The translations under genes and the position numbers were made by a program. This document shows, one piece after another, positions 37,036-40,586 of a stretch of DNA of 44,608 nucleotides; positions within the stretch are counted from its first letter, which is position 1; each line of letters opens with the position of its first letter. The notes under the pieces are model-generated. The model was not told the origin of the DNA. It made no database searches and saw only the letters and a list, made by a program, of their open reading frames with translations. The DNA comes from Chloroflexota bacterium. Its GTDB lineage: Bacteria; Chloroflexota; UBA6077; SHYK01. The stretch lies in assembly GCA_034666705.1 (NCBI GenBank), contig JAXDLH010000488.1:1-44608 (forward strand). The letters run 5' to 3'.

Positions 37036-38757
37036 ATGACTGTGGCACGCGGTCGCAATCTATACCTGCTCGTGGCTCTGCTGCTCGGCGCCTGCGCGGC
37101 GCCCACATCGCCAGCGCGGCCTGCTGGCGGAGTGACGGAGGCGCCGAGCTCATCCGCTCCGCCTCAGACCCTCGTTTTCATCTCCCGCAACGAAGTGGAC
37201 AACATGGCCGCGCTCAGCGGTGTCGGGACCGGTACGGGCACGCTCCGGCGCTTCTTCAATGCCACCCTCACGGCATTTGACGACCGCGGTCTGCCGCAAC
37301 CATTCCTCGCCGAGGCGCTGCCCCAGCTCAATACCGAGAGCTGGAAGGTGCAGCCCGATGGCCGCATGGAGACGACCTACAGGCTGCGGCCGAACCTCAC
37401 CTGGCACGATGGCGTGGCGTTGACGGCCGATGATTTCGTGTTCGCCTACCGGGTCTACATGAACCCGGATCTGCAGAAGGGCAGTCCGAAGAACCCGCCC
37501 CAGAGCCTCATCGAGCAGCTCCGCGCTACCGATGACCGGACGCTCGTCATCGATTGGAGCCGTTCCTTCGCCGACGCGGGTGTGTTGGGGGAGGAGTTCC
37601 GCCCGTTGCCGCGCCACATCCTGGAGCCGGTGCTGCAGCAAGCAGATCCCTCGGCGTTCGACAACAATTCCTACTGGACGACAGCGTTCGTGGGCCTCGG
37701 CCCATTCCGCGTCGATCGCTGGGACCCAGGCGCTGTCATCGAGGGGGTCGCGTTCGACGGCTACGTATTTGGCCGACCGAAGCTCGACCGGGTGCGAGTG
37801 CTCTTTAACAGCGATCCGAACGCCGTCGTCGCAAATCTGCTCGCCGGCAGCGCGCACCTTGTGGCTGATACCACGCTCCGGTTCCAGTCGGCAGTCGTGC
37901 TCAAGCGGGAGTGGGAGGCGCGCGGCGGCGGCGGCACGGTGTACTTCACGCCGTTCCAGGTCCGGTATGCGCAGATCCAGCAGCGGCCCGATCTGGCGAA
38001 CCCACGCGCCGTACTCGACGTACGGGCCCGGAGGGCGCTCGCCTTTGCTACCGACCGCCAGGGGCTCGTCGATGGCCTGTTCGAGGGACAGGGAATCGTC
38101 GCCGATACGCTCGTCCCGCGGAATGCGGACCACTATGCGGCGGTCGATCAGGCAATTGCGAAATATCCATACGATCCGCGCCGCGCCGAGCAGTTGCTGA
38201 ATGAGCTTGGCTTCACCAGAGGCGCGGATGGATTCTTTGCCAGCCCAACCGATGGGCAGTTCACCCCCGAATGGCGGGCGACGGGCGGCGGCGATAGTGA
38301 GACGCAGCTAGCAATCCTCGTCGACGGTTTGCGACGCGCGGGCATCGACGCCCGCTCCTACATCTTTCCGCAGATTCAGGACGACGACCGTGAGGCGCGC
38401 GCCAGTTTCCCCGGCCTCTCGAATACCAGTACGACCGGCGTGCCGGAGCGCTGGTATCGGGGTCAGACCACCAGTGAGATCCCATCCGCTGCCAATTTCT
38501 GGAACGGCACGAACCGCGGGGGCTGGTCAAACGACGCGTACAGCCAGATCTACCGTACGTTCTCGAGCACCCTGGACCGGAGCGAGTTGAATCGACAGGT
38601 CGTTGAAATGACGCGCGTATTGAGCGAGCAAGTCGGAGTCATTCCGCTCTATTACAACCTGGACGTAGCCGCGCAGAGTGCCAGCTTGCAGGCGCCTCGT
38701 CTCGTGGCGCCGGATGCCTCGATCGGCTGGAACATCCAGGAGTGGCAGCTACGCTGA
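37036..38757 (+). CDS. ABC transporter family-5 substrate-binding lipoprotein
   Basis: Lipobox LGAC, PFLAEALP, LTWHDGVALTADDF, GLGPF, ends WNIQEWQLR like its two paralogs. Confidence 0.92.
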   Translation: MTVARGRNLYLLVALLLGACAAPTSPARPAGGVTEAPSSSAPPQTLVFISRNEVDNMAALSGVGTGTGTLRRFFNATLTAFDDRGLPQPFLAEALPQLNTESWKVQPDGRMETTYRLRPNLTWHDGVALTADDFVFAYRVYMNPDLQKGSPKNPPQSLIEQLRATDDRTLVIDWSRSFADAGVLGEEFRPLPRHILEPVLQQADPSAFDNNSYWTTAFVGLGPFRVDRWDPGAVIEGVAFDGYVFGRPKLDRVRVLFNSDPNAVVANLLAGSAHLVADTTLRFQSAVVLKREWEARGGGGTVYFTPFQVRYAQIQQRPDLANPRAVLDVRARRALAFATDRQGLVDGLFEGQGIVADTLVPRNADHYAAVDQAIAKYPYDPRRAEQLLNELGFTRGADGFFASPTDGQFTPEWRATGGGDSETQLAILVDGLRRAGIDARSYIFPQIQDDDREARASFPGLSNTSTTGVPERWYRGQTTSEIPSAANFWNGTNRGGWSNDAYSQIYRTFSSTLDRSELNRQVVEMTRVLSEQVGVIPLYYNLDVAAQSASLQAPRLVAPDASIGWNIQEWQLR

Positions 38758-38830
38758 TCCTTGAATCGCGACGTAAGGCGTGAGGTTTGCCGCTGACTTC
38801 GAATGCGCGAGCATCTCATCGTCTCTGTAG

Positions 38831-38856
38831 CGGCGACTCGAAATCGGCGACTCGAA
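38831..38856. repeat. 12-bp direct repeat CGGCGACTCGAA, two copies
   Basis: Exact copies at 38831-38842 and 38845-38856, directly abutting a -35 element. Confidence 0.8.
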
Positions 38857-38859
38857 TTC

Positions 38860-38888
38860 TTGACGCGAGACGCTTGTGGAAGTACGAT
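38860..38888 (+). promoter_or_regulatory. near-consensus sigma70 promoter driving an intergenic transcript
   Basis: TTGACG-17 nt-TACGAT with no long ORF downstream for about 470 nt. Confidence 0.72.
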
Positions 38889-38894
38889 CATAGT

Positions 38895-39192
38895 AGCCCT
38901 TGCGCAGGGAGCAACGACGAGGACACGACCGATGAGGAGATTTCCGATCATGCGGTACCGAGTCCTGCTCGGAGTCTGGCAGGTGGACAGATAGGGCCCC
39001 ATGGGGAATAGCCGTGGGGCCTCGTAGACCCGGGCGCACCCGTGAAGTCCGCTTCGAAGCGGTGGCGCGCAGCGCTGCCGGTAGCATCGATTGAGACCAG
39101 TCGGCGCAGGGTTTCCGTCCGGCTAACCAATACAAGCGCTGCACGAGCCAATCTGGCTCCAGAGGGCCTCCCCATAGTCGGGAGGCCCTCTG
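38895..39192 (+). ncRNA. candidate structured ncRNA, 6S/Ms1-like rod with central bubble
   Basis: Bounded by a promoter and a 13-bp terminal hairpin. Long-range pairings 38968-38985/39142-39164 and 39009-39029/39100-39125 flank an unpaired bubble; G-U pairs favour the + strand. Family not confirmed. Confidence 0.5.
39160..39192 (+). terminator. terminal hairpin of the intergenic transcript
   Basis: CAGAGGGCCTCCC-7 nt-GGGAGGCCCTCTG perfect 13-bp stem; no U-tract. Confidence 0.7.
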
Positions 39193-39359
39193 TCATGACC
39201 TAGAGGTGGGGGCAATTTTTCCAAGCCTCGCGCCCTCGTTATAATGGGCGGGCAAACTCCGTAGTCGACTCCTGTCGAGCGTCTTTGTCTTTCGGGGTTG
39301 CCCCACGATCACTCCACGCATCAGGGGAGTATCGCGACCTTCGCTGGAAAGGAGACGGA

Positions 39360-40586
39360 GTGCCCGACTCGCGCCGCTACGTCGTGATTGGCAACGGCAT
39401 CGCCGGGACCACCGCCGCCGAGACACTTCGGAAGAACGATCCAGACTGTACGATCACGCTCTTCACGGGTGAGCCATATCCGCTTTACAACCGCGTCGCC
39501 CTTCCGCCAGCGCTCAAACTGAAAACGCCAATTCCCAAGGTCTTCATGAAGACGGTCGAGTTCCATGCGGATCGCGACATCGCGTTCCATCCGGAAACTC
39601 GCGTCACCGCCGTGGATCTGGACCGCCGCGTTGTCACAACGAACCGCGGCCATGAGGTGGCCTACGATAGCCTCCTTGTGGCCACGGGCGGGAAGCCAAA
39701 CGAGCTGACGGTCCCCGGCAGTGATGCCGATGGGGTGTGCTACTTTCAAACGCTCGACGATACGAAGCGGCTGCTCGACGAGATCGCCGAGGCCCGCTCG
39801 GCCGTGTCAATTGGGGGCAGCTACATCGCCTACGAGCTGGCCGAGGCGTTCCACGAGCGCGGACTCCATGTAACCTGGCTGATCCGCGGGCCGCATTTCT
39901 TGCACCGGATTCTGGACGAGAATGGCGGGCTGCTCGTGGATACGATTGCTCGCAAGCACGGTGTGGAGATGATCTACGAGGACTCGGCCGACCACCTCGA
40001 GACGAAGGATGGCCGGGTTGCCGGTGTAGTTACCAAGGCTGGGCGTCGCGCCGAGGCGGACATGGTGGGTTGCGGCCTGGGTTTGCGGTTGAGTCACGAT
40101 TTTCTGCCACGCGAACGAGTACGGATCGAGTACGGCGTCATCACCAACGAATATCTCGAGACCAATGCCGAAGGCGTCTACGCGGCGGGGGACATCGCCG
40201 AGTTCTACGACGCCGACGTGAATACGCACTACACGATGGGCACCTGGGCCAGCGCGACGAACCACGGCAAGGCCGCAGCGTTCAACATGGCTGGCGACCG
40301 CCGCCAGGTGAACGACGTTCGAACCTATACGACGACGTTGTTCGACTCGCGTATGACCGTGATCGGCGCAACCCCTGAGATTCCGATTCAACTTGAGAGC
40401 GTCTCGCACGCAGACTTCAAGGCCCCCGAGCCGAAGTCGTGGGCATACAAGCGGTTGTTCTTCTTCGACAAGCGGTTGGTCGGCGCGGTACTCATCGGCG
40501 ATATGCGCAGCAAGGTCGAGCTGGTCAACGTCATCCGGTCCAAGAGGCAGGTCTGGGATGATCGCGCTGCGCTGCTAGACCTCTAA
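39360..40586 (+). CDS. NAD(P)/FAD-dependent oxidoreductase (ferredoxin/rubredoxin reductase-like, NirB N-terminal type)
   Basis: VIGNGIAG, PYPLYNRVAL, YDSLLVATGG, IGGSYIAYE, VYAAGDIAE, LVGAVLIGD; TATAAT at 39240-39245 upstream. Confidence 0.9.
   Translation: MPDSRRYVVIGNGIAGTTAAETLRKNDPDCTITLFTGEPYPLYNRVALPPALKLKTPIPKVFMKTVEFHADRDIAFHPETRVTAVDLDRRVVTTNRGHEVAYDSLLVATGGKPNELTVPGSDADGVCYFQTLDDTKRLLDEIAEARSAVSIGGSYIAYELAEAFHERGLHVTWLIRGPHFLHRILDENGGLLVDTIARKHGVEMIYEDSADHLETKDGRVAGVVTKAGRRAEADMVGCGLGLRLSHDFLPRERVRIEYGVITNEYLETNAEGVYAAGDIAEFYDADVNTHYTMGTWASATNHGKAAAFNMAGDRRQVNDVRTYTTTLFDSRMTVIGATPEIPIQLESVSHADFKAPEPKSWAYKRLFFFDKRLVGAVLIGDMRSKVELVNVIRSKRQVWDDRAALLDL

Follow-up and report, generated by a model that had tools for sequence, protein, structure and literature searches.

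The locus described here raises the question of whether a structured intergenic stretch of about 300 nucleotides (nt) in a Chloroflexota genome is a divergent relative of 6S RNA or an RNA of another kind. The window, i.e. the whole stretch of DNA that was analysed, is a 44,608-nt stretch of contig JAXDLH010000488.1 (positions 1 to 44,608, forward strand) of the Chloroflexota bacterium assembly GCA_034666705.1 (lineage UBA6077; SHYK01), and the element lies at 38860-39192. A preliminary description saw there a self-contained RNA lacking an open reading frame (ORF) of note, folded it by hand into a rod with a central bubble, and proposed an RNA of 6S/Ms1-like architecture that binds RNA polymerase. 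Our analysis indicates that the element is very probably an autonomous small-RNA gene on the + strand, about 270-300 nt long and bounded by a promoter and a terminator of its own, which has a single copy in its genome, is represented in RNA libraries and is conserved, patchily, among Chloroflexota. Conservation is strongest in a short ORF (sORF) of 14 codons, which the preliminary description had overlooked as a gene and used as an arm of the closing stem. The parts on which the argument turns are the following.

38950..38994, + strand: sORF of 14 codons followed by TAG (MRYRVLLGVWQVDR), with the ATG at 38950 and the GVWQVD codons at 38971-38988
38994..39022, + strand: P2, an 11-bp G+C-rich hairpin that starts at the last base of the stop codon and covaries
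39030..39122, + strand: 3' domain, closed by P3 (39030-39035/39117-39122 and 39038-39041/39109-39112) and enclosing inner hairpins

The stretch was compared with 40 related genomes by BLAST. Genomes of the same family match it over 38916-39055, and those of the same order or the same class share a core of 30-40 nt at 38960-39000. Aligned across the relatives, this core reads in the frame of the sORF and the differences are synonymous; the resulting motif is [FLYW]-G-V-W-Q-[VI]-D, mostly followed by one variable residue and then the stop, and a GGAGG-like box is found 5-10 nt before the start codon. A search pattern for the class (GGNGTNTGGCAGNTNGAYNNNTRR; in degenerate form GGN GTN TGG CAG NTN GAY NNN TRR) occurs once per genome in 24 of the 66 genomes of the window's class, a count that includes the unpublished genome G037 (23 of 65 without it), while the reversed control pattern occurs in 2 of 66. 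Every class copy has a Shine-Dalgarno sequence and a start codon, the start being 6-15 codons 5' of the motif. The peptides of the class include MLLRKKPQSVFGVWQVDI, MYPMKKPHKVYGVWQVDF, MTKSRVELGVWQVDR and MVCARILFGVWQIDR. Across the copies the ORF is 13-22 codons long and its N-terminus varies in both length and sequence, i.e. conservation is limited to the last 7 residues.

A prokaryote-wide scan with one genome per species and a slightly stricter pattern gave at least 120 matches. Among the matches listed at least about 108 are Chloroflexota assemblies, labelled Dehalococcoidia, Dehalococcoidales, 'Chloroflexia', Thermomicrobiales or Chloroflexi, and the typical peptide is M[RK]LHx[LI][FYL]GVWQVDx. 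The 12 other matches listed (Paenibacillus, Burkholderiales, Planctomycetes and others) were judged to be chance occurrences inside other genes, and no cultured carrier stood among the matches listed. Codons were counted in the 108 Chloroflexota copies among the matches listed. Gly is encoded by GGA (74), GGG (28) or GGT (6) and never by GGC; the first Val by GTA (37), GTC (24), GTG (24) or GTT (23); the Val/Ile position by GTG (58), GTT (34), GTC (11), ATT (3) or GTA (2); and Asp by GAC (84) or GAT (24). The residue before Gly is F, L, Y or W, with Leu drawn from both of its codon families. The stop position holds TGA in 51 copies, TAA in 26, TAG in 18 and TGG in 13 (UGG likewise stands at this position in 13 of 120 distinct copies). 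In 11 of these TGG copies the frame runs on for 3-5 codons and stops inside or close to the loop of the hairpin that follows, and in the other two it runs on for 16 and 23 codons.

The invariance of motif codon positions 1 and 2 is partly imposed by the search pattern, and we therefore inspected the hits of a sequence profile, R1, instead. MAFFT had misaligned the P2 loop, hence R1 contains no base pairs and is a sequence profile only. Its hits include copies with CAA for Gln (G058, G078, G012 and G111), with W changed to F (G090) and with V changed to R or C (G012, G111); the stop follows directly after Asp in G053 and 5-8 codons after it in G039 and G006. Moreover, the seven codons before the motif, on which no pattern acts, have mean entropies of 1.09, 1.30 and 1.50 at codon positions 1, 2 and 3 in 120 distinct sequences, and no such three-base periodicity was seen upstream of the ORF or after it in the same sequences. 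Because of the synonymous variation, the variants outside the pattern and the entropy by codon position, we conclude that the core, to judge from its sequence, is under selection as a peptide. As in arrest and leader peptides, a short ORF is thus combined with C-terminal residues that are conserved at the peptide level.

Other reading frames at the locus were also considered. In-frame extended ORFs of 46-63 amino acids were scanned: NCBIfam yielded no family up to E = 10, and the sole match in Pfam-A was a 10-bit one, taken as chance, peptides of this length being near the model size limit. The 63-residue extended frame on the + strand and an antisense ORF of 131 residues (38749-39144, - strand) are not kept in the relatives, and they were therefore taken as chance ORFs of G+C-rich DNA.

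Some single copies of the sORF deserve a remark. One contig (L066) of a metagenome-assembled genome labelled Sphingomonadaceae has the peptide VCARIRFGVWQIDR and a hairpin identical to those of the Chloroflexota genome G014, and it is probably mis-binned or mislabelled. Two contigs of another metagenome-assembled genome (L064 and L074) encode slightly different peptides, MVVDRIRWGVWQVDT and MVDRIRWGVWQVDT, whereas elsewhere there is a single copy per genome; this could reflect two strains in one bin or a true duplication. Codons 2-4 of the sORF (GCUUC) can pair with a GAAGC at the 5' end of the Dehalococcoidia-type copies, and 86.5% of cells are paired (alignment A5, columns 21-25/82-86). A second GCUUC just 5' of the Shine-Dalgarno sequence pairs with GAAGC in 65%, and Leu codon 3 is almost always CTT. 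These segments could form an alternative pairing that gates translation, with almost no covariation to be seen in them.

In the phylum at large, the strict pattern was found in 29 of 401 sampled genomes, made up of 18 of 46 from the window's class and 11 of 355 from the rest of the phylum; the control matched in one listed genome. With profile R1 the element was found in 13 of 16 class genomes and in 8 of the 135 others. The R1 search scored only 28 candidates per genome, which makes its negatives weak, and we relied on the exhaustive pattern.

The second conserved part of the element is its fold. In the window's family (5 sequences), P2 and P3 together with a 5'-terminal hairpin, P1, have 85.6% of their alignment cells paired, a value that none of 500 shuffles attained; the two P3 helices are 100% and 90% paired, and 3 pairs show compensatory change. 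In 52 Dehalococcoidia-type sequences P2, P3 and a further helix, P5, are 91.3% paired against 85.3% in shuffles, with compensatory change in 16 of 25 pairs. None of 500 shuffles reached any of the five measures used, and slid controls on the same sequences paired in at most 47.5%. Taken helix by helix, P2 is paired in 99%, P3 in 90.1% and P5 in 83.5%, the long-range helix P3 having compensatory change in 9 of its 13 pairs. In the relatives the 3' domain is a three-way junction, the inner helices of which are putative in the window copy. Since the junction covaries, selection on structure is implied, and since two P3 pairs are frequently G-U, which would be C-A on the other strand, the structure belongs to the + strand, the same as the sORF. 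The preliminary description had read the same orientation from G-U pairs. Folding energy agrees in part: the 306-nt core folds better than its dinucleotide shuffles with z = -4.23 on the + strand and z = -4.08 on the - strand, so that energy supports a structure but cannot assign the strand. The 3' domain showed no conserved single strand resembling a seed, and neither a trans target nor a partner was found. Several GGA motifs in the element would allow the speculation that it acts as a CsrA sponge.

It is conspicuous that the peptide motif and P2 keep a fixed distance. The conserved GCCC of P2 starts 7-8 nt after the Asp codon in all 8 variants found by R1, wherever the stop lies; the distance is constant with the stop right after Asp (G053), and with the stop 4-8 codons later (G039, G006 and the 13 UGG copies). 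Inspected by eye, the register is kept in 23 of the 24 class copies, with G004 off by 1 nt. In the prokaryote-wide matches the register is partly imposed by the search pattern.

The hand-folded rod had a different fate. In the window 43 of its 44 pairs are canonical, but it is not kept in the 5-sequence family alignment, where 67.3% of cells are paired against 65.8% in shuffles, 49 of 500 shuffles being as high, and where rod helices c and d are only 55% paired. The rod also conflicts with the covarying P2, and one of its arms is the coding motif. The covariation in relatives supports P2 and the three-way junction and not the rod. The preliminary description was right that the element belongs to no class in the libraries searched: Rfam 15 gave no match on it, whether the whole window was scanned at the gathering threshold, 38700-39400 at E up to 10, or 20 homologous loci. 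Hits to sodF, mir-1913 and sR45 had E > 5 and were taken as chance. The 6S model RF00013 matched in 0 of 21 genomes of close relatives and in 1 of 16 genomes of the window's class. It matched in 34 of 151 sampled genomes of the phylum, mostly from other families and concentrated in a few of them (e.g. 9 of 9, 4 of 4), so 6S RNA is either missing from many Chloroflexota lineages or too divergent for the model. One genome, G058, carries a 66.1-bit RF00013 6S RNA plus the element. Because the element is patchily distributed and coexists with 6S RNA, it is unlikely to be the 6S RNA of the lineage.

Two further identities were discarded. ARAGORN found neither tRNA nor tmRNA in 38700-39400, a 134-bit tmRNA lies on another contig, and the sORF has a Shine-Dalgarno sequence and an ATG, unlike the tag frame of a tmRNA, which lacks a start codon. 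A repeat or mobile element was ruled out by the single copy of the stretch in its own genome (a 4.4-Mb assembly of 503 contigs).

The remaining features of the unit, and the first signal behind it, are these.

38860..38888, + strand: sigma-70-type promoter, -35 TTGACG at 38860-38865, 17-nt spacer, -10 TACGAT at 38883-38888
38897..38909, + strand: P1, 5'-terminal hairpin CCCT/AGGG with loop TGCGC (predicted fold)
38934..38939, + strand: Shine-Dalgarno sequence GAGGAG, 10 nt 5' of the ATG
39145..39159, + strand: small hairpin GAGCCA-ATC-TGGCTC, in the minimum-free-energy fold of the window copy only
39160..39192, + strand: terminator-like perfect 13-bp hairpin with a weak U tract (TCTGTCAT)
39218..39245, after the terminator: promoter-like site of the next gene, TTTCCA-16-TATAAT

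Most of the preliminary description's account of the boundaries is borne out. The near-consensus promoter is where it had been placed, and TTGAC/TAnnnT recurs at identical spacing in all 5 sequences of the window's family and in 16 of 17 Dehalococcoidia-type copies; the transcription start near 38895 is only predicted. The perfect 13-bp hairpin is likewise real, and so is the separate TATAAT of the next gene. A simple terminator scan missed 39160-39192 because its tail has too few T, and in the relatives the corresponding position is taken by a G+C hairpin with a T run behind it. At the site of P1 a palindromic CCnGCGCnGG recurs in most class relatives, P1 covariation being weak. The window's class and the Dehalococcoidia type share one order of parts, which starts with a TTGAC(A)-17-TAnnnT promoter and a short 5' hairpin and goes on with the Shine-Dalgarno sequence, the sORF, P2, P3 enclosing two hairpins, a linker, a G+C hairpin and a T run. 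The element thus resembles dual-function small RNAs (sRNAs) in being a discrete small transcript with its own promoter and terminator, both ends being predicted. Directly 5' of the -35 box the window has a tandem direct repeat, CGGCGACTCGAA, in two copies with a 14-nt period (38831-38856). It could be a regulator binding site, and it was not seen in the four aligned relatives of the window's family.

The neighbouring genes were assigned as the longest non-overlapping ORFs of at least 70 amino acids, an ORF heuristic. By this test the next downstream gene is convergent in 13 of the 24 class loci and co-directional in 11, and the convergent orientation in so many loci speaks for a gene that stands by itself and against a leader. 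When 75 public loci were put through a cruder test of open frames, 31 came out as convergent, 20 as co-directional and 23 as unclear, and 1 was too short. The neighbouring genes belong to heterogeneous gene families, and synteny does not extend beyond a single taxonomic family: 4 of 5 genomes of the window's family have a Pyr_redox_2/Rubredoxin_C oxidoreductase on the downstream side, and 3 of 4 genomes of a sister family have a convergent gamma-glutamyltranspeptidase there. The oxidoreductase of the window probably starts at GTG 39361, after AAGGAG, and not at TTG 39285 as in the ORF list; its own TATAAT is kept after the terminator in three relatives (L031, L032, L035) as CGCTATAAT. Arrest and leader peptides lie upstream of, and in an operon with, the gene they regulate; here a terminator follows, more than half of the class neighbours are convergent and the neighbours are of mixed families.

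Evidence of transcription comes from public sequencing runs. Words of the stretch are contained in 24 public runs, 15 of which are on record as RNA, and the Logan contigs of four soil metatranscriptomes from 2 studies were compared with window positions 38000-40000. The contigs that match the element are listed here.

38912-39138: 227-nt contig in X4, 1 differing letter
38967-39137: 171-nt contig in X5, 1 differing letter
38921-39137: 217-nt contig in X6, 3 differing letters
38912-39100: 189-nt contig in X7, 2 differing letters

No contig in these four runs covers 38000-38870 or 39139-39800, i.e. the RNA contigs lie on the element alone, as expected of a self-contained RNA. The recurring contig ends (38912 twice, 39137/8 three times) were not taken as transcript ends. 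Taken together, the contigs fit an abundant discrete transcript and do not prove one. Further contigs match 38968-39000 only and then diverge; some of their loose ends read as the Shine-Dalgarno sequence and ATG of other peptide variants, which suggests that copies of relatives are present too. At 39816-39862, inside the oxidoreductase gene, contigs of X6 and X7 match for 30-47 nt and then diverge. We regard this as a conserved enzyme motif of other organisms and not as expression of the window gene.

Among known systems, the dual-function sRNAs Spot 42/SpfP, SgrS/SgrT, RNAIII/delta-haemolysin and SR1/SR1P likewise combine sRNA size with a peptide-coding part and a structured RNA part. The element has no sequence or structure relation to Spot 42, SgrS, RNAIII or SR1, it shows no identified base-pairing seed, and it belongs to a different phylum. 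Closer in the peptide is PepNL of E. coli, a 14-residue arrest peptide which stalls with tRNA-Asp in the P site, depends on a critical penultimate Ile, forms a hairpin in the tunnel and has its own UGA read through by Trp-tRNA (PMC11890864). PepNL and, by published accounts, TnaC (PMC8450073) share with the element a very short ORF, conservation at the C-terminus, a branched hydrophobic residue followed by Asp near the stop, and the interchange of UGA and UGG. They differ in that PepNL and TnaC lie upstream of a regulated gene, whereas the element is a terminated RNA, often with a convergent neighbour; in the element, moreover, one variable residue usually follows Asp and then the fixed hairpin, and no sequence homology is claimed. 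Closer in layout is rnTrpL of Sinorhizobium, a small terminated RNA that encodes the 14-amino-acid peptide peTrpL, with RNA and peptide both reported to act in trans (PMC6614838, PMC7298713, 10.1101/606483); peTrpL acts in trans together with the sRNA (PMC7298713, 10.1101/606483). rnTrpL is reported to be a tryptophan attenuator of trpE(G) with consecutive Trp codons, whereas the element, which folds differently, encodes only one Trp and has no biosynthetic gene linked to it.

How might the peptide and the fold work together? We tentatively favour, at somewhat below an even chance, a nascent-peptide mechanism in which the peptide would act in cis. When the Asp codon occupies the P site and GVWQVD lies in the upper part of the exit tunnel, P2 would be placed at about +11, at the mRNA entrance of the ribosome, wherever the stop lies. 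Peptide and P2 together could then pause or arrest the ribosome, in resemblance to PepNL and TnaC, short peptides of the termination- and elongation-arrest type, and the paused ribosome would hold P2 open and shield the RNA. The pause might set the conformation or the lifetime of the three-way-junction domain, which would act in trans, and in this way the unit would signal the status of translation without depending on a gene downstream. The exit tunnel can hold the whole of so short a peptide, and the near-invariance of its last seven residues across classes fits a partner as conserved as the ribosome. The complete proposal, i.e. an autonomous abundant small RNA with its own arrest-type sensor, in which a pause, always equally far from P2, would switch the trans-acting domain or make it more stable and the RNA would sense translation status untied to a downstream gene, is a speculative extension and we consider it rather doubtful as a whole.

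Several points weigh against this mechanism. The stalling, the translation and the peptide itself are all deduced from sequence. About half of the loci offer no cis target, no trans target or seed was found in the element, and the proposed output, the state of the 3' domain, is hypothetical. Since the position after Asp is occupied by varying residues and about 11% of copies have a displaced stop, arrest during termination is disfavoured, and a pause in elongation is the one form left. Nor is there an evident excess of UGA in the stop usage, which was not set against genome-wide usage. The invariance of motif codon positions 1 and 2 and the register of P2 are partly built into the search patterns. 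Assembled contigs give no strand, ends or level, and DNA may contaminate RNA libraries. The strong promoter, the Shine-Dalgarno sequence and the stabilising hairpins would be explained equally well by a free micropeptide.

A dual-function sRNA of that kind, whose free micropeptide would bind a conserved partner or its own three-way junction while the 3' domain has a separate RNA role, is possible, and we judge it somewhat unlikely. Besides the strong conserved promoter, the near-consensus Shine-Dalgarno sequence and the stabilising structures at both the 5' and the 3' side, it would account for the presence of the RNA in small soil metatranscriptomes and for the tolerance of C-terminal extensions of 4-8 residues and of the loss of the last residue; peTrpL/rnTrpL, as reported, and Spot 42/SpfP are precedents. 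On the other hand, conservation covers no more than 6-7 residues, the N-terminal half being of variable length, a hexapeptide that is near-invariant across classes is more easily reconciled with an rRNA-like partner than with a protein, the fixed spacing between motif and P2 is left unexplained, and no conserved neighbour gene presents itself as partner or maturase. The element might also be a plain, very stable micropeptide mRNA in which P2, the junction and the hairpins serve only as stabilisers and terminator. Hairpins at the 5' and 3' ends are common stabilisers and the 3' domain shows no seed-like conserved single strand, but the compensatory pairs of P3 and a junction architecture shared across classes exceed the usual needs of stability, and we regard this explanation as improbable.

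The other three explanations are weaker still. That the element is a cis leader or attenuator of the FAD/NAD oxidoreductase gene (39361-40586), with the sORF as a classical leader peptide, is suggested by the co-directional Pyr_redox_2/Rubredoxin_C gene in the window's family and by the order of sORF, structure, terminator and gene; yet that gene has its own conserved TATAAT after the terminator, the neighbour is convergent in 13 of 24 class loci and the co-directional neighbours come from unrelated families, so this reading is very unlikely. A 6S/Ms1-like RNA that binds RNA polymerase by mimicking an open promoter, as originally proposed, is more improbable again. 6S RNA and the mycobacterial Ms1 bind RNA polymerase, and 6S RNA is also a template for pRNA. 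Like both of them, the element is an independently transcribed, apparently abundant and structured RNA of a few hundred nt, and the lack of an RF00013 match in the 21 close relatives would suit such a role, as would the finding of 6S RNA in only 1 of 21 element-positive against 33 of 130 element-negative genomes sampled from the phylum, although these lineages are not independent and the control was detected in only 4-5 of 14 known genomes. Unlike 6S RNA, the element finds no covariance-model match even at E = 10 and keeps no rod with a central bubble, the rod competing with P2; the arm of the closing stem is a coding motif in a conserved sORF, the distribution is patchy, and G058 has both RNAs. 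Finally, a purely non-coding structured RNA with an incidental ORF would go with the GGA or GGG at Gly in 102 of the 108 copies listed, the CTT at Leu codon 3 of the Dehalococcoidia type and the pairing of the 5' GAAGC with codons 2-4, which do indicate that some RNA-level constraint overlaps the ORF. We give it next to no credence, the variation being synonymous and periodic and three kinds of in-frame stop, a Shine-Dalgarno sequence and a start codon being kept across classes.

Small RNAs that combine a structured part with the coding sequence of a tiny peptide are a known kind of gene; this family, its motif and its hairpin-coupled geometry are not known, within the Rfam, Pfam, NCBIfam and literature searches made. 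No published description was found by peptide strings or keywords, in a literature search whose range excluded subscription journals, supplements and very recent work. Soils, sediments and aquifers abound in Chloroflexota, about whose regulatory RNAs, to our knowledge, almost nothing is known. The peptide gene of the element ranks among the shortest and the most strictly conserved and is physically joined to an RNA domain that covaries, and the RNA is visible in very small soil metatranscriptomes. If the nascent chain is the active form, sensing by arrest peptides would no longer be confined to cis leaders but would reach trans-acting RNAs; if the free peptide is, the element would be a new micropeptide-RNA pair. 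Either way there is a new RNA family and a new micropeptide family that can be added to annotation pipelines, which at present miss both, as gene callers skip 14 codons and Rfam has no model.

Two minor observations concern the surroundings of single copies. Several copies (those of L020, L021, L023, L037-L039 and the window) have mutually unrelated redox- or iron-related genes beside them, namely a gamma-glutamyltranspeptidase in three cases and otherwise rubrerythrin, a ferritin-like protein, an FAD oxidoreductase and a rubredoxin-reductase-like enzyme; this could hint at a redox regulon, or it may be chance. In L119 a cobalamin riboswitch (RF00174, 49.6 bits, positions 608-754) lies a few hundred bases from that contig's copy of the element.

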